Shown here: positions 3,620 to 37,322 of the stretch, piece by piece
Numbering within the stretch: the stretch's first letter is position 1
Layout: each line of letters begins with the position of its first letter
Origin: a virus
DNA length: 38,111 bases
IMG/VR virus record: IMGVR_UViG_3300045988_094968
Span: 1-38,111 of that record
Strand: one strand, 5' to 3'
Notes under the pieces: model-generated
What the model was told of the DNA's origin: nothing
The model's database searches: none
Seen by the model: the letters and a program-made list of their open reading frames with translations, nothing else
Position numbers and translations under genes: made by a program

Positions 3620-3829
3620 ATGTTAGATTACAAAGAATGGAACGAAACTGTTCCTAAATTGTTAGGTAAAAAAATTCGTATAACCTGCACAGATGATGAA
3701 GTCTATAACACCACCTGTGATTATATCTCAGAAGCAGAAGATGACGAAGGATATAATCTGCCTGTCATTGTAACGCCTTTTTTTGAATTTGACAGAACTG
3801 ATGTTAAAAAAATTGAATTTTTAGATTAA
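3620..3829 (+). CDS. Small acidic protein (69 aa), candidate partner/immunity protein of the portal C-terminal domain
   Basis: The ATG lies 2 nt after the portal stop, and RBS AAAGGAGG sits in the portal 3' end. It shares the AT-rich composition of the portal tail. An acidic patch 'SEAEDDEG' is present, and a hairpin terminator follows. Confidence 0.5.
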   Translation: MLDYKEWNETVPKLLGKKIRITCTDDEVYNTTCDYISEAEDDEGYNLPVIVTPFFEFDRTDVKKIEFLD

Positions 3830-3857
3830 ACCGCCCAGCAATGAGCGGTTTTCTTAT
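3828..3857 (+). terminator. Hairpin plus T-tract after the 69-aa ORF
   Basis: AAACCGC-(10 nt)-GCGGTTT followed by TCTT. The stem is weak to moderate (7 bp). Confidence 0.4.
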
Positions 3858-3881
3858 ACCCATTTGAAGGAGGTGAGGAGA

Positions 3882-4127
3882 ATGGACGAGAAAGCACTGA
3901 AAATAGTCAGAGATTATATATTTGCACATCTCGACAAGACGGATACTGTTCCGCCATTTGATGTCTATATGGTCTGGAAGTGCAAAGCCTTGCAGAACTG
4001 GAAGTATCTTATCTCCAGTACGCTGTGTGACGGTATGTACTATGAGATGACATACAACGGCGACAAGAAGGAATGGTATCTCGACGCTTACAAGAAGTTC
4101 GAGAACAAAGTTATCACGGAGGAATAA
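3882..4127 (+). CDS. Small conserved phage protein (81 aa; resembles the DUF6275-type 'VWxCKxLQNxK...DGMYYExTYNGDK' family)
   Basis: ATG 3882 is preceded by GGAGGTGAGG. The track start at 3864 is a TTG upstream of that RBS. The motif 'VWKCKALQNWKYLISSTLCDGMYYEMTYNGDKKEWYLDAYKK' is recalled from Firmicute prophages. Confidence 0.6.
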   Translation: MDEKALKIVRDYIFAHLDKTDTVPPFDVYMVWKCKALQNWKYLISSTLCDGMYYEMTYNGDKKEWYLDAYKKFENKVITEE

Positions 4128-4130
4128 AAA

Positions 4131-4364
4131 ATGGACGACTGGAAAGGCAGGCTGAAAGCTGAGTACTCTCAGACAAAGGAACGATACGAAAAGCTGAAGG
4201 CTTATAATAACAAGCAGGAAGTTGAAGCCTACTTACTCAAAGACATTGCAGAAGAACCGGAAGATATGTACAGCAGAGTGCTGCTGAAAAAACAGCAGGC
4301 TGCTATGGGCGAGTACCTTCACATACTGGAGCTCCGTGCAGAGCTGGCTCACATCGAACTTTAA
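4131..4364 (+). CDS. Small helical protein (77 aa)
   Basis: The ATG lies 3 nt after the preceding stop. The pattern 'WKGRLKAEYSQTKERYEKL...QQAAMGEYLHILELRAEL' resembles a recurrent small phage helical family. Function is unknown. Confidence 0.55.
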   Translation: MDDWKGRLKAEYSQTKERYEKLKAYNNKQEVEAYLLKDIAEEPEDMYSRVLLKKQQAAMGEYLHILELRAELAHIEL

Positions 4365-16075: not shown

Positions 16076-16452
16076 AATACATAATCATGATATTAATAAT
16101 CATCGGTCTTGCGCTTGCAGACTATGTCACAGGATTCATCAAGGCGTACTGCAATGACGACATATGCAGCGCCAAGATGAGAAAGGGCGGATTGAATAAG
16201 ATTGGCGAGATCGTTGTAATGGTGACAGCCTGCGGACTGGATATCGGCATACACGAGCTGGGCAAGTACTATCAGGCTGTGGAGCTGTCCGACATCGCAG
16301 GCATTGTGACGGCGGTTTTAGTTTTCACCTACATCACCGTTATGGAGATAGTCAGCATTTTCGAGAACTACGCCGAGATCAATCCCGATGCGCAGTGGGC
16401 ACTGAAAATAATTAAAAAGCTGAAGAACTTCAACAAGGAGGACAAGTCATGA
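16072..16452 (+). CDS. Holin (phage_holin_4-like)
   Basis: 126 aa with about 3 TM segments and 'LADYVTGFIKAY...SAKMRKGGLNKIGE'. It lies directly upstream of the endolysin. Confidence 0.8.
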   Translation: MKYIIMILIIIGLALADYVTGFIKAYCNDDICSAKMRKGGLNKIGEIVVMVTACGLDIGIHELGKYYQAVELSDIAGIVTAVLVFTYITVMEIVSIFENYAEINPDAQWALKIIKKLKNFNKEDKS

Positions 16453-17216
16453 AATACGATTACAACGATGAAACGCAGCTTTCGGAGCATTTCAATGCAA
16501 GGGAGTTCCGCTGCAAGTGTGGTAAAACGCATGATACGGAACTCAACCCCAAGCTTGTGGCAGATCTCGAAAAAATCTACAGGGCACTTAGTTGCTCTAA
16601 GATCATCGTGACAAGCGGCTACCGCTGCCCTACACACGACAAGAATGTAGGTGGCAACGGAACAGGTCAGCACACCAAGGGCAACGCTGCGGACATCATA
16701 TGCTACGGTCAGGACGGCAATATCATAAGCACCAAGAAAGTTGCCTGTAAAGCGCAGGATATCGGTTTCAGAGGCATTGGCAACATCGACAGTACATACA
16801 CTGCAATTCACGTTGACGTGCGTACAGGAGCTAAGTGGTACGGCGATGAAGCCGTGCGTGGCGGCACTTCGGGAAGCGTGACGGATGACTTTTACAGGTA
16901 CTACGCAGTCACAACAGAAACAAATCCGATATCTGAATTGCAGCAGATCTTAAATGCCAAAGGCGCATCACTGGCTGTGGACGGTATCGCAGGCACAAAG
17001 ACACTCGCGGAGTGCCACAAGTACACTATCAACGATGGCGACAGCGGTGAGCTGACGCGCTGGGTTCAGGCAAGGCTGAATGCTATCGGGTTTAACTGCG
17101 GAGCGGCAGACGGTATCGCAGGCGAGCGAACCATGACCGCTATCTACAACTTCCAGCAGGCTAATCGGCTCGGGATTGGATATCTCGGCGGTAGTGACTG
17201 GGACGCTCTCATATGA
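16449..17216 (+). CDS. Endolysin: M15-type zinc peptidase plus two PG_binding_1-like repeats
   Basis: 'FRCKCG...SGYRCPTHDKNVGGNGTGQHTKGNAADI...AIHVDV' carries the H/D/H metal ligands. The C-terminal repeats are 'LAVDGIAGTKT' and 'AADGIAGERT'. Confidence 0.85.
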   Translation: MKYDYNDETQLSEHFNAREFRCKCGKTHDTELNPKLVADLEKIYRALSCSKIIVTSGYRCPTHDKNVGGNGTGQHTKGNAADIICYGQDGNIISTKKVACKAQDIGFRGIGNIDSTYTAIHVDVRTGAKWYGDEAVRGGTSGSVTDDFYRYYAVTTETNPISELQQILNAKGASLAVDGIAGTKTLAECHKYTINDGDSGELTRWVQARLNAIGFNCGAADGIAGERTMTAIYNFQQANRLGIGYLGGSDWDALI

Positions 17217-17421: not shown

Positions 17422-17473
17422 AAATCATATCTTTGTTCAATTTAGACCGCCTAACTGCTCGAAGATATGATTT
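17422..17473. repeat. 52-bp element with perfect 12-bp terminal inverted repeats; candidate attP
   Basis: AAATCATATCTT (17422-17433) and AAGATATGATTT (17462-17473) are separated by 28 nt and abut the integrase stop codon. Confidence 0.35.
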
Positions 17474-18908
17474 ACATTTTATAAAGAATTTCGATTATTC
17501 CTTTTGGTTTAATATAAGTGATTCTGTCAACCAATCCTCTGAGGGTGTAGTTCTTCAGGGCTTCGCTTGTCTCGTCACTTTCAAGAATTTTCAGCGATGC
17601 CATTATTTTCCTTGAAATAATTTCCTTTATATCTTTGTCAGACTTGGGAAGAACCTTGGAGGCTTTGGCTTCGAGTTCAGCTATATGGTCTTGAATTTTC
17701 TGCTTAGCAGTCTTATATTCGGCAAGTGTATCAACTCCTGCTTCGTAAGCCTCTCGCACTCGCGCGAGCTTTTTCTTTTCACGCGCGATCAGGCTTGAAA
17801 AGTCGGGAGCGGATGAGCTTGAAGCTCCTGTTGGCTCGACAGCTACTTCAAAATTCTGAGATTTGGCATCGGATCTAAGTTTTTCCAGAACTGCTGCATT
17901 TATTTTTTTAACTGTGATACTATGTGATGTTTTGCATACACCTCTTGCATAGTTGTGGCATTGCAAGGATTTAGCCGCAGACTGATTGACGAGAGTAGCT
18001 CCACACGCGCTGCAACGTACTATGCCTTTCAGCATAAACTCGGACGGGGTTTGTCTTGCGTGCTTAGGATATCGCTGTTTCAACTCAGAACGTTTTCTTT
18101 GGGCTTGTTCAAATGTTTCCGTGTCAATTATAGGCACATGATTTCCGTTGACTATAAGAGTGTTTTCAGCATCTTGGTGATAATGGTCGCTGATGTTTTT
18201 TTCTTTACTACGGCGGAGTTTTCCTATGTAGACAGGATTTGTAATAATGTATTCGATTGCGCGGTTTTCAAAAAAATTGCCTTTTGCAGTTCTCAGCCCC
18301 AAATCATTAAGTTCCCGTGCAATTTCCCGTGTGCCTTTACCTGCAATAAAATCAGCAAAAATTTTTTGAACTATGGGCGCTGTTTCAGGGTCGGGAGCAA
18401 AAATTCCATCTTTCATCATATAACCGTAGGGCGGCTGAGAAACAACACCGCCGCGGGAGAATTTTTCAGTCATGCCGCGCTTGACTTCTTCTGCAAGATT
18501 CAGGCTGTAATATTCGTCCATAGCTTCGATAAGAGCCTCGATGAGAATGGACGTGTTATCATCTCCGAGCTGTTCCGAGATAGATACAACATCTATGCCG
18601 CATTGCTTGCGGAGCATGGACTTATAAACAATACTGTCCTGCCGATTTCGGGCAAAGCGTGAAAATTTCCACAACAGTATCACGTCAAATGGTTTGGGCT
18701 TGATCTTGGCTGTACCGATCATGCGCTGGAATGACGGACGTTTATCTGCTTTTCTGCCGCTGATTCCCTCATCGACAAAAATAAATTCTTCCGGCAGTAT
18801 CATGTCATGGTCCTTGGCATACTTACGGATAGCTTTTATCTGAGAATCGGGGGAGTACTCGATCTGATCATCGGTTGATACTCTTATATATGCCGCTGCG
18901 GTTTGCAT
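17472..18908 (-). CDS. int: Large serine recombinase (integrase)
   Basis: 478 aa. It has the N-terminal resolvase motif 'AAYIRVSTDDQ...SPDSQ', a recombinase domain, a zinc ribbon 'CSACGATL...CHNYARGVC', and a C-terminal coiled coil. Confidence 0.92.
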   Translation of the reverse strand: MQTAAAYIRVSTDDQIEYSPDSQIKAIRKYAKDHDMILPEEFIFVDEGISGRKADKRPSFQRMIGTAKIKPKPFDVILLWKFSRFARNRQDSIVYKSMLRKQCGIDVVSISEQLGDDNTSILIEALIEAMDEYYSLNLAEEVKRGMTEKFSRGGVVSQPPYGYMMKDGIFAPDPETAPIVQKIFADFIAGKGTREIARELNDLGLRTAKGNFFENRAIEYIITNPVYIGKLRRSKEKNISDHYHQDAENTLIVNGNHVPIIDTETFEQAQRKRSELKQRYPKHARQTPSEFMLKGIVRCSACGATLVNQSAAKSLQCHNYARGVCKTSHSITVKKINAAVLEKLRSDAKSQNFEVAVEPTGASSSSAPDFSSLIAREKKKLARVREAYEAGVDTLAEYKTAKQKIQDHIAELEAKASKVLPKSDKDIKEIISRKIMASLKILESDETSEALKNYTLRGLVDRITYIKPKGIIEILYKM

Positions 18909-19548: not shown

Positions 19549-20586
19549 TCAACAGGATATTGTATCTTCGCTTTCGCCGTTGACAATTTCTAACAGTTCA
19601 TTTACCGATATTTCTTTTTTAGTCGCTATAATGTAAATGAACAACTTACCCGCTGCGAAACTATCATAAACAGCATTATGGGCATCAGATATAAAAACTT
19701 GTGCAGATTCACATATGTCCGCCAATTTATAACTGCTTTTGCCCTTCAAAAATTTTCGTGACAGTTGAAGCGTATCATAAATGGCTTTGTCTTTAATTGA
19801 ATCCAAACCGTTTACATATAGATGTTTTACATCAAACGGAGCATTATGGGCAACAAGCGGGAGGTCTTCTATGAAGTCATTAAAGCTATCTATAACTTGG
19901 TAAAACTTCGGGGCATTTTCCACCATTTCATCTGTTATCCCGTTAATATCGGTTATTTCTTCTGGGATAGGTTTTCTCGGTTTAATATAAGTGTTGAATT
20001 TTTCTACAGGCAGGAAATTTTTAAATTTAATTGCAGAAAGCTGAATAACATCATTGCCGCCTGTTTTTAACCCTGTTGTCTCAGTATCAAATGCAATAAA
20101 ATCTTTAATGGATTTGAGCGAAGTAGATTTAATTATACTTTTATACTCTTTATCTTCAATATCCAACTGCTTGTTGCGATTTTTCCTTTCACCGCTCAGG
20201 GTAATTTTATATTCAGGAATAGAATCAACAGTTTCTTTAAACTTAATGCGATCTTCGGCTATAGATTCTTCGCGTTGCCGTTTAAGACGTTCGTACCGTT
20301 CTTCTCTCTCTTGTTTTTCCAATTGCTCTTGCAATATCCTTTTCCTGCGTGCCTCGTTTATTTCACCTTGCTTTTTTAGGTATTCTGCTCTCTCTTCGGC
20401 TTCACGTCTTTCACGTTCGACCTTTCTTTTATACTCTTTGAACTCAATTTCTTCTTGCTTTTTAGACTTTTTGGGAGTTCTTTTAAATAATGTAATGTCA
20501 TTTAGTGTGATATTCTTATGATTTGTTAGTTCGGCAATCAGTGCTATGATGAATGTAATAATAATTATGTATACATAAATCCTCAT
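19549..20586 (-). CDS. Membrane-anchored coiled-coil protein with a C-terminal DEDDh (DnaQ-like) 3'-5' exonuclease domain
   Basis: Start ATG 20586 lies 6 nt after GGAGGA; the track start at 20676 overlaps the repressor gene. The TM segment is 'IYVYIIIITFIIALIAEL', followed by about 100 aa of E/R/K-rich coil. The exonuclease motifs are ExoI 'FDTETTGL', ExoII 'VAHNAPFDVKHL' and ExoIII 'HNAVYDSFA'. Confidence 0.8.
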   Translation of the reverse strand: MRIYVYIIIITFIIALIAELTNHKNITLNDITLFKRTPKKSKKQEEIEFKEYKRKVERERREAEERAEYLKKQGEINEARRKRILQEQLEKQEREERYERLKRQREESIAEDRIKFKETVDSIPEYKITLSGERKNRNKQLDIEDKEYKSIIKSTSLKSIKDFIAFDTETTGLKTGGNDVIQLSAIKFKNFLPVEKFNTYIKPRKPIPEEITDINGITDEMVENAPKFYQVIDSFNDFIEDLPLVAHNAPFDVKHLYVNGLDSIKDKAIYDTLQLSRKFLKGKSSYKLADICESAQVFISDAHNAVYDSFAAGKLFIYIIATKKEISVNELLEIVNGESEDTISC

Positions 20587-20633
20587 AATAAATCCTCCAA
20601 TATCCCTATTCATTGTTGTAGTGAGTACTGACG

Positions 20634-21371
20634 TTACTGCGGCAGTTCTGCCGTGCCTATTACGCGACCGACACAAATGATTTCTCCGTCCTCGGGGTAT
20701 ATATCAGGGTATTCATCGTTGTGTGAAATCAAACGATCATTGCCTTTTTCTTTTATATATCCCTTATTGTTTTGGATAAACAATCCAATTTTTCCAACAG
20801 GGACATCTGTATCAGATACCACATATACAATATCGCCGTTCTGGTATGTTGGTTCCATACTGCGACCGTCAATCTCGACGGCGAAATCCGCCTTTTGTGC
20901 TTCGGGCGTGTCAACGACCTCTAAATCTTCCCAATTATCGGCGTCCTCTAAGTCGTATCCGCAACCTGCCGATACCTTGTGTACGCTGAAACGCTTGAAA
21001 ACAATGATTTTCGGCTCACCTGCCATACCTCGCTTGGCAGCTTCGCCCAACTGTATCATTGTGTCCATAATGATCTGTCGTATATTTTCGGGCAGCTTGC
21101 AGTACAGATCTAAGGCTTCTTTCTCGCCGATAGCCAGATTCAACATGGCTATCGGATTTTTTTCGGATTCACGTCCGAGCAGATAGTCAACAGTTACGTT
21201 AAAATGATTTGCAAGTACTATTAAACCGTCTGCATTAGGTTCAGATGTACCATTTTCATATCGCTGATACGCCTGCTGTGTTACTCCGACTATTTTGGCG
21301 ATTTCAGATTGGCGTTCATTTTTGGATTCGCGTAACTTTTTTAATATAGCGCCACGTTCTGATCTATCCAT
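20634..21371 (-). CDS. CI/LexA-like repressor (XRE HTH plus S24 peptidase)
   Basis: ATG 21371 lies 8 nt after AAAGGAG. The HTH is 'QSEIAKIVGVTQQAYQRYENG'. A possible Ala-Gly cleavage site is 'VSAGCGY'. The catalytic 'DGRSMEP' serine and a downstream lysine are present. Confidence 0.9.
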   Translation of the reverse strand: MDRSERGAILKKLRESKNERQSEIAKIVGVTQQAYQRYENGTSEPNADGLIVLANHFNVTVDYLLGRESEKNPIAMLNLAIGEKEALDLYCKLPENIRQIIMDTMIQLGEAAKRGMAGEPKIIVFKRFSVHKVSAGCGYDLEDADNWEDLEVVDTPEAQKADFAVEIDGRSMEPTYQNGDIVYVVSDTDVPVGKIGLFIQNNKGYIKEKGNDRLISHNDEYPDIYPEDGEIICVGRVIGTAELPQ

Positions 21372-21393
21372 AAAATCATCTCCTTTCAATAAG

Positions 21394-34869: not shown

Positions 34870-34878
34870 GGAGGACAA

Positions 34879-35049
34879 ATGAAAACACGAATATTTGTGA
34901 TCCGCAACGGCGATTATGGTACATATGTACATACATCAATGACCAAAATCAAAGCGTTCACGTCATATTATGGTGCGCTACAGTATATGCGGTTCCACGG
35001 ATTAAACGAAAACATCTACAAGGTCGAGGTGTGGATATGGGAGAGATGA
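34879..35049 (+). CDS. Small protein (56 aa), not in the ORF track
   Basis: AAGGAGGA lies 3-4 nt before ATG 34879. The product begins MKTRIFVIRNGDYGTYVHTSMTKIKAF. Confidence 0.45.
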   Translation: MKTRIFVIRNGDYGTYVHTSMTKIKAFTSYYGALQYMRFHGLNENIYKVEVWIWER

Positions 35050-35453
35050 AAATCAAAGACTTACGCCAATATCGGACTATATGTGCTGAAATTGATTATA
35101 TAGACAGCAAGCTGAAAGGTAGCAAGATCCATGTAAGTGATTCGGTTCAGTCTGCGGCTAAACATCCATACAGCCTTCACAACGTGCGGATCGAAGGGGA
35201 TATATATGAATGCTCATCACCGTCGCTTCTTGCAAAACGGCAAGACCTTATTGCACAGAAGGAAAGCATTGAGCAATTTATAAACAGCATTCCAATTTTC
35301 AAGATACGGAGAGCACTCGAACTATACTGTATTGAACCTTTGGGTGAGAATCTTGTATCACCAACTTGGGAAGATGTTGCAGACGCTATGGCAGACGGCA
35401 GTACAGCAGCGGCTTTAAAAATGGCAGCGAAAAGATTTTTAGAAAAATCCTGA
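35037..35453 (+). CDS. Late-gene transcriptional regulator candidate (sigma-70 region-4-like / DUF1492-ArpU-RinA class)
   Basis: ATG 35037 follows GAGGTG; the track ORF from 34773 overlaps two upstream genes. The C-terminal HTH-like segment is 'WEDVADAMADGSTAAALKMAAKRFLEK'. It is the last early gene before the packaging module. Confidence 0.6.
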   Translation: MGEMKIKDLRQYRTICAEIDYIDSKLKGSKIHVSDSVQSAAKHPYSLHNVRIEGDIYECSSPSLLAKRQDLIAQKESIEQFINSIPIFKIRRALELYCIEPLGENLVSPTWEDVADAMADGSTAAALKMAAKRFLEKS

Positions 35454-35456
35454 TTT

Positions 35457-35499
35457 TGTTACTAATGTTACACATGTTACGAATAAGGTGTGGTATAAT
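35457..35499 (+). promoter_or_regulatory. Three phased TGTTAC repeats plus an extended -10 promoter (TGgTATAAT)
   Basis: TGTTAC at 35457, 35466 and 35475 (9-nt period). TG at 35491-35492 and TATAAT at 35494-35499. Confidence 0.45.
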
Positions 35500-35544
35500 T
35501 ACAATGGGATTAAAGTAAATTCCGAACCCCAACTCCTTTTTTTG

Positions 35545-35585
35545 TCAGACCGCTCAATTATTGCGCGGTCTGATTATTTATTTTG
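35545..35585 (+). terminator. Rho-independent terminator
   Basis: TCAGACCGC-(11 nt)-GCGGTCTGA followed by TTATTTATTTT. Confidence 0.6.
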
Positions 35586-35605
35586 CCAAAAAATCACGGT
35601 TTGTA

Positions 35606-35634
35606 TTGAAATATGTGTTGCCTTATGGTAGAAT
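35606..35634 (+). promoter_or_regulatory. Near-consensus promoter TTGAAA-N17-(TGg)TAGAAT for the two-gene cassette
   Basis: Hexamers at 35606-35611 and 35629-35634, with TG at 35626-35627. Confidence 0.6.
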
Positions 35635-35662
35635 GTAGAAAAGGATATTGGGGGTAATACAA

Positions 35663-36727
35663 ATGAAAAATATATCATTATGCTTTTATCAGTTTTCAGT
35701 TTTTAAAACTGTTAAAAAAAACGGGAAAGAAACTGAAGTTAGCGTCTGCCTTGATGATATTAATGGTGAAAGCATTGCAAATTGTGTTTACACATTTTTG
35801 AGAAGAAATGTTGATAAATATGAAGATGACAAGGAGAAGGAAAAGGTTTATAAACCTGATAGTGCAGAAGTTAAGACTGCGAGTATAAATAACCATTTTT
35901 ATTTCGGAGCTCTTCATGCAATAATAAAATCAGGAGATTATGGAATTGAAGTGGAAATCGTTGATCCTGAAACAGGAGAGAAAACACATACTCAAGCTAA
36001 AAAAGAAGCAGGAGTAATGCCATTTGGTTTTTCAATATATTATTCTAAAATTAGTAGAGAAGGAATATTGATTTCGCAGACATTCGGCAATAGAGGAATG
36101 TTCAGTCATTTGAAGGGCATACTTGAAGATTCGGTTAGATTATTTATGCCTAATGCCAGCGTTATAGTGAAATGTGTAGTTCCTGATATCTATTTTCAGA
36201 ATCTCATGAACTCAAAAGAGATGCAGTCTATTGTAGTAGAAACAAAGAAAAAAACTACTAAAGATTTAGATGAGCAGTGTCCATTGGTTGATTATGAATC
36301 TCGAGAGCATGTGTATAAAAAGCCAATATTTAAAATAGGATATAAGGAAAAATTGATAAACTTATTTACAAAAAGAGAGCCACTCGCTATAATAAACGGG
36401 CTTGTGGATCCAGATGAAGCAGTCGAAAATGTTAAAATCAACTTTAAATCTAACTCGCGATATAAGACAGTAAACTATTTAACGTATTTTTCTTTAAAAG
36501 TTGCTGAAGATATAACAGGAAGTGTGAAGACCAACATTGAAACAGGTCACCCACAAAAAGAGAGTTTATTTGAACAAATGGATAAAAAGGCAATTTTTTA
36601 TATGGAAGATTTAAATATCATTATGCCCAAAAGCTCACATGAATCAATTGACTACATTGGAGATTCGTTTTTTTATTTGAAATCAGATGAGGTGGTCGAA
36701 AAAAATGTATCTGCTGTCAAAAGCTAG
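35663..36727 (+). CDS. Unknown soluble protein (354 aa), first gene of the AT-rich cassette
   Basis: ATG 35663 (the track TTG at 35648 is less likely). No P-loop or HTH was seen. The only motif-like feature is 'VVPD-x18-VVETK' (PD-(D/E)xK-like, weak). Confidence 0.7.
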   Translation: MKNISLCFYQFSVFKTVKKNGKETEVSVCLDDINGESIANCVYTFLRRNVDKYEDDKEKEKVYKPDSAEVKTASINNHFYFGALHAIIKSGDYGIEVEIVDPETGEKTHTQAKKEAGVMPFGFSIYYSKISREGILISQTFGNRGMFSHLKGILEDSVRLFMPNASVIVKCVVPDIYFQNLMNSKEMQSIVVETKKKTTKDLDEQCPLVDYESREHVYKKPIFKIGYKEKLINLFTKREPLAIINGLVDPDEAVENVKINFKSNSRYKTVNYLTYFSLKVAEDITGSVKTNIETGHPQKESLFEQMDKKAIFYMEDLNIIMPKSSHESIDYIGDSFFYLKSDEVVEKNVSAVKS

Positions 36728-37259
36728 TCAATTACTTACAAATGCGCATTTTTACATTATATTGGCTATTTTATGTTTTGTTATTAGCTCAGGTAAAAAA
36801 TATGTTAATATTTCAAGAATTGTAAAAGCATACTATGAAGAATTTATTTATAAAAATAGATCAACGATATTAATTATCATTGTTATACCAGTTTGTTTGG
36901 CAAATGCGCTAAATTTAGAGATAGTACTTGATGAAAAAACAACGGAAACGATTTGCGTAATAATTTCAATACTAATGTCATTGTTTTTTACTTATTTGTC
37001 ATATTTTCAAGATAGTGAAAAAAAGGAATATAAAGATTATAATTTTAAAAGAATACATGATCAATATTTGAAAGAGACCAAGGCCGTAGCTTCTTACGAG
37101 ATCTTAATTAGTGTATTATTGCTTGTTATATGCTTTGTATATCCAATGATTAGAAATGGACTAATAAAAGAATTTATCAGCGGCATAGTTTATTTCTTAT
37201 TATTTCATATGTTAATGAATTTGTTGATTTTGTTAAAAAGACATAATAATAATTTATAA
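36705..37259 (+). CDS. Polytopic membrane protein (184 aa, about 5 TM), second gene of the cassette
   Basis: ATG 36705 lies 9 nt after GAGGTGG and overlaps the upstream gene by 23 nt. There are five hydrophobic stretches (e.g. 'STILIIIVIPVCLANALNL', 'FISGIVYFLLFHMLMNLLILL'). Confidence 0.7.
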   Translation: MYLLSKASQLLTNAHFYIILAILCFVISSGKKYVNISRIVKAYYEEFIYKNRSTILIIIVIPVCLANALNLEIVLDEKTTETICVIISILMSLFFTYLSYFQDSEKKEYKDYNFKRIHDQYLKETKAVASYEILISVLLLVICFVYPMIRNGLIKEFISGIVYFLLFHMLMNLLILLKRHNNNL

Positions 37260-37268
37260 GCATAATTT

Positions 37269-37299
37269 AACCGCTCTCCTATAGGAGAGTGGTTTTCTT
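37269..37299 (+). terminator. Hairpin terminator closing the cassette
   Basis: AACCGCTCTCC-TATA-GGAGAGTGGTT (11 bp with one G.U) followed by TTCTT. Confidence 0.55.
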
Positions 37300-37322
37300 A
37301 TTACAGAAAGTGCGGTGATAGT

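Follow-up and report, generated by a model that had tools for sequence, protein, structure and literature searches.

The mechanism of Rex is still unresolved some 70 years after Benzer. RexAB-type pairs, found in phage lambda, in the phages Sbash and CarolAnn and in P. putida P1, combine a DNA-binding RexA-like protein with an effector containing four transmembrane helices (PMC12894663, PMC6426596), and the count of RexAB-like systems described so far is five (PMC12894663). The RexA protein of P. putida binds DNA non-specifically and is toxic upon overexpression only if its RexB partner, with four transmembrane helices, is present (PMC12894663, PMC6426596). RexA belongs to the RdgC/IML3/CHL4-like fold class (PMC11077077); DUF4747 is common to lambda RexA and Sbash gp30. 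Here, we analyse a two-gene cassette located at positions 35606-37299 of a 38,111-nucleotide phage sequence (IMG/VR record IMGVR_UViG_3300045988_094968, positions 1 to 38,111; this whole stretch is called the window hereafter), between a gene for a transcriptional regulator of the phrog_36 family and the packaging genes. The cassette is built like Rex and, by sequence, lies outside the RexA and RexB families. We give a probability of about 50% to the proposal that it is a Rex-like exclusion or abortive-infection system, and the operon is best explained as a horizontally acquired accessory moron of a temperate siphophage.

The cassette is the most AT-rich stretch of the window, as stated in an initial annotation made from the sequence alone: its G+C (GC) content is 29.6%, compared with 45.0% for the remainder, the 1700-nucleotide (nt) segment of minimum GC begins at 35571 (29.2%), and the lowest segment that does not overlap it reaches 36.9%. 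Gene 1 (35663-36727, plus strand) encodes a soluble protein of 354 amino acids (aa) without any Kyte-Doolittle hydrophobic segment, and gene 2 (36705-37259, plus strand) a membrane protein of 184 aa with five such segments, in agreement with the approximately five transmembrane helices announced initially. The 23-nt overlap of the two reading frames and the ribosome-binding site of gene 2 (GAGGTGG, 36689-36695, plus strand), located within the 3′ end of gene 1 and 9 nt 5′ of the gene 2 ATG, were both confirmed in the sequence. The near-consensus promoter that had been attributed to the cassette corresponds to a sigma-70/sigma-A type promoter-like site (TTGAAA-N17-TGgTAGAAT, 35606-35634, plus strand) which matches 10 of 12 positions and carries an extended −10 element. 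This match is weak taken alone, since such matches are abundant in this AT-rich DNA (25 observed for 11.6 expected), and the chief argument for it is its intergenic placement, ending 29 nt upstream of the gene 1 ATG.

Terminators had been predicted on both sides of the cassette, and two plus-strand hairpins with U-rich tails are indeed present: one follows the regulator gene (35544-35585, with the hairpin at 35544-35574; RNA fold −18.8 kcal/mol, z −5.0) and the other, resembling an intrinsic terminator, lies downstream of gene 2 (37270-37303, with the hairpin at 37270-37293 and the tail UUUUCUUAUU; −18.8 kcal/mol, z −5.2). A simple terminator scan detected only the downstream hairpin, the upstream one being supported by RNA folding. 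The distance from the downstream terminator to the next gene is 22 nt in the window, where this gene encodes an HNH endonuclease, and 29 nt in another phage backbone, where it is terS (L001 11600-11669). Such a gap leaves no space for a separate promoter, so that late packaging transcription must begin upstream and cross the terminator, possibly through antitermination by the linked phrog_36 regulator or, also possibly, with late co-transcription of the cassette. The term 'self-contained' used in the initial annotation is overstated because the cassette always travels with the regulator gene (see below), and the 3′ terminator abuts the packaging genes.

Searches with the proteins encoded by gene 1 and gene 2 against Pfam, PADLOC, PHROGs and NCBIfam returned nothing above noise; the PADLOC check suggested initially therefore gave no match for either protein of the window. 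INPHARED phages and PLSDB plasmids gave no match when searched by megablast and tblastn with the region and with gene 1, and a word-indexed protein search yielded three close clusters per gene, or nine with a family profile. An exhaustive HMMER search, with gene 1 and two close homologues combined in a profile, was needed to reveal the family. It contains 263 representatives at E<1e-3, 53 of them at E<1e-10, mostly of 300-350 aa, and the hidden Markov model (HMM) rebuilt from these relatives picks up further members. P0073, a centroid member of the family, retrieved annotated records when used as query, unlike gene 1 itself. We aligned 100 relatives, which are the basis of the conservation, Pfam, PADLOC and PHROG tallies given here for this family. 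G91 and G94 are invariant in this alignment and Y93, A116, P120, F121 and P297 nearly so, defining the conserved motifs G91-x-Y93-G94, A116-x3-P120-F121 and G295-H-P297.

The statement that no family could be assigned to either protein is now outdated, as both belong to PHROG families annotated as 'unknown function', which their relatives match: phrog_15676 (53 of the 100) and phrog_36224 (23 of the 100) for gene 1, and phrog_15250 for the membrane partners. The two proteins of the window itself miss the HMMER threshold for all three and are linked to them by profile searches and hhalign only. None of the 100 relatives matches the Pfam families DUF4747 (RexA), RdgC or DUF4868 (KwaB), and no consistent PADLOC match was obtained for them. 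A weak PD-(D/E)xK nuclease motif had also been suggested for gene 1. We dropped this idea because the relatives rarely share its residues D175, E193 and K195 (10%, 8% and 5%, respectively); no nuclease structure was matched either.

A possible link to RexA emerges at the level of the predicted fold. With the 100-sequence alignment, AlphaFold2 produced a model of gene 1 with a predicted local distance difference test score (pLDDT) of 93.1 and a predicted template modelling score (pTM) of 0.88, from three sequences only, the model was unusable (pLDDT 36). Foldseek comparison of the confident model with the PDB gave two significant matches, which are both chains of the Escherichia coli RdgC structure 2owl (E 1e-4 and 2e-4; probability 0.99), with an alignment spanning roughly the full length of the protein. 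The next-best match is chain N of the human CCAN complex (E 2.4e-3), which we take to be CENP-N, the orthologue of Chl4. In BFVD, the model matches five uncharacterised phage proteins (down to 2e-20), followed by a phage protein annotated as RdgC. Sequence searches of the PDB found no match, whether the query was gene 1 or the 100-sequence profile. Since the template modelling scores between the model and RdgC are low (see below), the fold call rests on the E-value and probability of the Foldseek 3Di comparison; low scores are expected if the orientations of the domains differ. The predicted fold is consistent with the RdgC/IML3/CHL4 class reported for RexA. RdgC (PF04381) is thus the best and sole significant structural match of the gene 1 model in the PDB, and its size is similar (about 300 aa). 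It differs from gene 1 in that it is a stand-alone chromosomal gene without membrane partner, in that gene 1 has neither a PF04381 match nor profile similarity to RdgC, and in that the GxYG, Ax3PF and GHP motifs of the gene 1 family are, as far as testable, not those of RdgC.

The membrane partners are likewise related to each other. Most of them have four hydrophobic segments, and a fifth, added at the N-terminus, is present in the subfamily of the window and in a Clostridium copy; four of the five segments of gene 2 hence correspond to the core common to phrog_15250 partners. An hhalign comparison of the gene 2 subfamily with the other partners gave a probability of 96.2% (E 2.6e-9, 149 columns), and matches to the partner HMM among the loci range from 1e-26 to 1e-57. 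Between its third and fourth hydrophobic segments, gene 2 contains a charged central loop (approximately residues 101-127), and its C-terminus is basic (LLKRHNNNL). By analogy with the central loop of Sbash gp31, which is needed for defence, the gene 2 loop is a natural candidate for the interface with gene 1.

The two families are strictly paired across mobile elements. At nearly every locus examined, the gene that follows a gene 1 relative encodes a protein of 171-194 aa containing 4-5 hydrophobic segments, and the two genes overlap by up to 41 nt or are up to 67 nt apart. This order, soluble protein first and membrane protein second, holds in about 17 loci (the window, L011, L017, L020, L021, L031, L032, L035-L038, L124-L127, L129 and L133). 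The loci with the pair include phages whose gene 1 homologue is 34% identical to that of the window (L017, L124 and L125) as well as further IMG/VR phages, small contigs encoding Rep_1 (L021 and L133), a Clostridium plasmid, two Acinetobacter plasmids in which the pair lies beside BrnTA, a rumen metagenome-assembled genome (MAG), a cyanobacterial MAG, and chromosomal loci (L011-L014, and L020, which adjoins alaS). The pair is also found in the filamentous Pf prophage PfAC16 of Pseudomonas aeruginosa (L035), as ORF1-ORF2 (412-1883) at the left end, beside a repressor and an excisionase; both of its families are represented there (hhalign 99.7%; phrog_15250 4.5e-18). A scan of GTDB genomes with a narrow alignment returned two loci. 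The exceptions to the pairing are L023, in which a putAbiC-domain protein takes the place of the partner, and L128, in which gene 1 is truncated. The GC content of the pair is below that of its locus in 9 of 10 loci. Together with the presence of the pair in only 3 of 80 phages with a related TerS (see below), these observations support the view that the gene 1 and gene 2 families form an accessory, horizontally mobile two-gene unit with neither a core nor a lytic function.

Decayed copies of gene 1 were also encountered. In the cyanobacterial MAG (L032 7770-8739), gene 1 is split into two overlapping open reading frames (ORFs), the partner being intact, and in the IMG/VR phage L128 (5001-5528) it is truncated to 175 aa and followed by a 546-aa ORF. 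In the chromosomal copies (L011 3065-6895; L012 947-4648), the pair always lies 213 nt 3′ of a gene encoding a 1233-1276-aa protein without Pfam family, and a SocA_Panacea gene is present near the pair in L011. This chromosomal neighbourhood may be a defence island.

The position of the cassette in phage genomes was compared by several approaches. Phages encoding the protein identical to gene 1 differ in their replication modules (SMC/AAA_24 or PcfJ/Sipho_Gp157) and in their packaging modules (Terminase_2 with an SPP1-type portal, or HNH with Terminase_4), and in all of them its gene is placed between the regulator gene and the packaging genes. Comparison by blastn of the window with L001-L010 and L028 delimited a mosaic block (34870-37301, plus strand) that is 98-99% identical, with flanks that differ on both sides, and contains a 56-aa ORF, the regulator gene, the cassette and the terminator; its right edge falls exactly after the terminator. 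As the shared DNA is a single block including the regulator, the unit of exchange is the regulator plus the cassette. The cassette follows the regulator gene in every contig shown that encodes the identical 138-aa regulator protein. On two additional phage backbones, the divergent pair (34% identity) likewise has a phrog_36 regulator on one side and terS on the other (the pair of L017 is preceded by a phrog_36 protein, E 9e-20). Overall, the pair is carried by temperate siphophages with three different packaging modules.

The initial annotation had compared this position with the cargo slot of lambdoid phages and proposed a hotspot test, for which we examined 80 of the 302 IMG/VR phages that encode a related Terminase_2 TerS. 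A homologue of the regulator is encoded 747-2448 bp upstream of terS in 59 of these 80 phages. Three carry the pair, and the other 56 have in the same slot about a dozen unrelated, AT-rich types of cargo: a 205-aa protein (21 loci), YfbU (13 loci), a 170-aa protein (7 loci), DUF4417 with a partner (4 loci), a TIR-like protein (PADLOC, 5e-6), DUF6731 (268 aa) with a 102-aa protein and a 157-aa transmembrane protein (L098/L111-type, clusters c23-c25), a 322-aa protein with a 217-aa transmembrane protein (L113, clusters c28-c29), and several other transmembrane proteins. Like the cassette, the DUF6731 and 322-aa cargoes combine a soluble protein with a polytopic membrane protein. The mean GC content of the slot is 0.345, compared with 0.447 for the loci. 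When all slot cargo was searched with the gene 1 and partner profiles, only the three carriers matched, and hhalign detected no homology between the gene 1 family and the soluble cargo proteins of clusters c23 (DUF6731-type) and c28. The slot is a true cargo hotspot.

A conserved non-coding element of about 260-320 nt separates the regulator gene from the cargo in 56 of the 59 relatives with the regulator (L046-L121; for instance L076 3131-3450). It occurs in 42 distinct variants with 78-100% identity, forms two GC-rich hairpins and contains TTGATT-N17-TGATATAAT immediately 5′ of the cargo ORF. Its conservation in 56 phages indicates that the succession of hairpins, strong promoter and cargo is a general property of the slot; the element is absent from the three cassette-carrying phages. 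Scans for Rfam families and tRNAs found none in this element, in the slot of the relatives or in the cassette region.

The comparison with the described Rex systems (Sbash gp30/gp31, CarolAnn gp44/gp43, Butters gp30/gp31 and RexABpp of P. putida P1, besides lambda) reveals a similar architecture. In both cases, two adjacent and co-oriented genes of temperate phages encode a soluble protein first and a small inner-membrane protein with a core of four transmembrane segments second. The RexA-like proteins of the actinophages (337-372 aa) and of P. putida are close to gene 1 in size, the predicted fold of gene 1 is consistent with the RdgC/IML3/CHL4 class reported for RexA, and the charged central loop of gene 2 recalls that of Sbash gp31. 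The 'Rex-like logic' mentioned in the initial annotation gains support from the resemblance of the gene 1 model to RdgC and CENP-N, the fold class of RexA, and from the shared rexA-rexB gene order. The differences concern sequence, position and distribution. Pfam, PADLOC and hhalign revealed no resemblance of gene 1 and gene 2 to RexA/DUF4747 or RexB, RexB (144 aa) is shorter than gene 2 (184 aa) and lacks its additional N-terminal transmembrane segment, the cassette lies between the regulator and terS whereas rexAB lies beside the immunity repressor, and the gene 1/gene 2 family extends to inoviruses, plasmids and chromosomes.

A Rex-like cassette could operate as follows. In the lysogen, the pair would be transcribed from its own sigma-A promoter. 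The gene 1 product would be a cytoplasmic protein of the RdgC/RexA class, probably a dimer that binds DNA, or clamps it, irrespective of sequence, and would detect a superinfection product (for example foreign DNA, replication intermediates or a phage protein). It would then engage the cytoplasmic loop of gene 2, a small inner-membrane protein with a four-helix core that would act as an oligomer. Gene 2 would finally perturb the membrane, through ion leakage, depolarisation and loss of ATP, and thereby abort or arrest the infection.

Several observations weigh against this proposal. No link at the sequence level connects the cassette to any validated system. The hhalign probability is 0.2% between the gene 1 family and lambda RexA, used either as a single sequence or as a 4-sequence profile, 0.1% between this family and E. 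coli RdgC, and 0.1% between the partner profile and RexB. As a true family member with 18-23% identity scored 99.7% in the same procedure, a relation to RexA, RdgC or RexB, if any, lies beyond the reach of profile-to-sequence comparison. A forced global alignment of gene 1 with RexA places the patterns MKxxFYxxY (N-terminal), xxxPxF and xxP in the same order, with no statistical support. The structural comparison also has its weak side: the template modelling scores between the gene 1 model and RdgC are 0.29-0.33, with a root-mean-square deviation of 12 Å, and the RexA structure 8TWQ is not within the top 50 Foldseek matches. The cassette is located about 14 kb from the repressor gene, unlike rexAB, and is linked instead to the phrog_36 regulator gene. 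With a terminator 22-29 nt from the packaging genes, it may also be transcribed late. Finally, the putAbiC-domain protein found in place of the partner in L023 (283 aa) has two transmembrane segments. Patterns derived from primers for the P. putida genes PP_5643/PP_5644 (RexApp/RexBpp) were searched in IMG/VR and JGI metagenomes and none were found; the protein termini deduced from these primers (MHRTATFV..., ...VYNKQSRLMV; MLIGQLANP..., ...LYYLGYKLQE) do not resemble the present family, which is weak evidence.

The polarity of the proposed system could be reversed, as in Kiwa, where KwaB, a dimer that binds DNA, is retained at the membrane by KwaA, a protein that has four transmembrane helices, and blocks replication and late transcription (bioRxiv 10.1101/2023.02.26.530102). 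Gene 2 would then sense membrane stress or DNA entry, or serve as an anchor, and gene 1 would be the effector, clamping foreign DNA and blocking replication or late transcription in a non-abortive manner. Kiwa resembles the cassette in that a small membrane protein, which is polytopic, is associated with a soluble protein of about 310 aa that binds DNA, in a defence that acts at the membrane. This polarity would also fit the description of the cytosolic RexA-like protein of phage Butters, and not of its membrane partner, as the effector (PMC12894663). Furthermore, gene 1 is the better conserved of the two genes, and its predicted fold is of the DNA-ring type. The cassette does not, however, belong to Kiwa itself, a likeness that had been evoked initially: neither the window proteins nor the 100 relatives match KwaA, KwaB or DUF4868 by Pfam or PADLOC, KwaA is encoded upstream of KwaB, which is the opposite order, and KwaB consists of a Rossmann-like domain and DUF4868 rather than an RdgC fold, with no Kiwa structure among the Foldseek matches. 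We consider the reversed polarity unlikely.

The pair could alternatively serve the mobile element itself rather than immunity, gene 1 modulating recombination (via RecA), replication or the lysis-lysogeny switch and gene 2 tethering or regulating it at the membrane. RdgC indeed inhibits RecA activities, and RexA biases the lambda switch toward lysis independently of RexB (PMC11077077). The co-inheritance of the cassette with a transcriptional regulator as one block, the position of the Pf copy next to a repressor and an excisionase, and the need for maintenance functions shared by all the plasmids and inoviruses that carry the pair point in the same direction. Yet the replicons concerned (Rep_1 contigs, RepM plasmids, inoviruses and siphoviruses) differ wholly in their replication and maintenance, the pair also occurs in non-phage chromosomal settings, most phages with a related TerS have unrelated cargo in its place, and a low GC content and hotspot placement are typical of accessory morons; a function of this kind appears quite doubtful to us. 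It is very improbable that the two genes are simply the first of the late operon, encoding a packaging or lysis accessory such as a membrane protein acting with the holin and a DNA-handling factor for the terminase. The cassette is directly 5′ of the genes for HNH, TerS and TerL, late transcripts must cross its terminator, and other phages have the 34%-identical pair at this position, but the pair is missing in 77 of the 80 phages whose TerS is related, it is found on plasmids, an inovirus and chromosomes devoid of packaging genes, and the endolysin is encoded elsewhere (16449-17216). We found neither conservation of the pair as core genes nor similarity to lysis or morphogenesis proteins (PHROG, Pfam or structural), two of the observations that the initial annotation had named as arguments against a defence cargo.

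Among these possibilities, the Rex-like exclusion or abortive-infection system remains the reading that we prefer. In its favour are the gene architecture, the mobility of the pair, the hotspot location, the promoter-like site and hairpins of the cassette in a temperate phage, and the RexAB-type precedents. Literature searches for RdgC-like defence systems found the RexA paper alone. We tentatively suggest that the cassette may represent a large family, present across phyla and never described, which would combine an RdgC-fold DNA clamp with a phrog_15250 protein containing four transmembrane helices; it could be an independent or deeply diverged branch of a 'Rex superfamily' that has been missed by defence catalogues.

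The window corresponds to a temperate siphophage genome, about 38.1 kb long, for which identical contigs exist (38,111-38,183 bp); it encodes TerL, a portal protein, a tape-measure protein and an M15 endolysin, the latter being remote from the cassette. A rightward early region includes PcfJ, a helicase and a primase. The minus strand carries the genes for a serine integrase (17472-18908) and a CI/LexA-type repressor (20634-21389). The regulator gene upstream of the cassette (35037-35453, plus strand) encodes a 138-aa protein that matches the phrog_36 transcriptional regulators (PHROGs, E 2.1e-6). The initial annotation had called it a late regulator: the assignment as a regulator stands, and its putative role as a late activator derives from its position before the packaging genes. 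Downstream of the cassette are the genes for the HNH endonuclease (phrog_144, 1e-20), a Terminase_4 TerS and TerL.

All contigs derive from human gut metagenomes. A 73%-identical homologue of the pair is present in the chromosomal contigs L011-L014, alongside Spo0A and dockerin genes, and a homologue of the L017-type membrane partner is annotated in Oscillospiraceae MAGs, suggesting that the host is probably a gut member of the Clostridia, an Oscillospiraceae or Ruminococcus-like bacterium.

Other regions of the genome contain genes of possible interest. Between the serine integrase and the CI-like repressor genes, in the second most AT-rich part of the window (GC 0.35-0.37), a minus-strand gene (19549-20676) encodes a protein of 374 aa whose C-terminal part is an RNase_T/DEDDh exonuclease domain (PF00929, 1.6e-31) and whose N-terminal half, of about 190 aa, is without assignment. 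This gene may likewise be cargo that is expressed during lysogeny. Phages of this group harbour, just behind the genes for the portal and minor-capsid proteins, variable small genes matching anti-defence 'sponge' families in Pfam: DUF6275 and Sequestin (PF21825) in the window (approximately 3827-4309, equivalent to L039 9616-10098), and Acb2_Tad1_hairpin, or Tad2-like with Sequestin, at the corresponding site downstream of the portal gene in relatives (L001 16819-17193; L003 16873-17817). An Ntox50 domain was also found in portal or minor-capsid proteins of this phage group.

The regulator-terS cargo hotspot is now defined in a common group of human gut phages and holds many further unannotated candidates. 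If the pair works like Rex, the Rex architecture would prove much more common and varied than is apparent from sequence searches, extending to phages of gut Firmicutes, to Pf prophages of Pseudomonas and to resistance plasmids of Acinetobacter, and defence-finding tools would gain new HMMs from the family. The homologues of Pf phages and Acinetobacter plasmids reside in genetically tractable hosts. If the interpretation as a 'Rex superfamily' is true, it would link the housekeeping protein RdgC, lambda RexA and a widespread membrane-coupled immunity based on DNA sensing.

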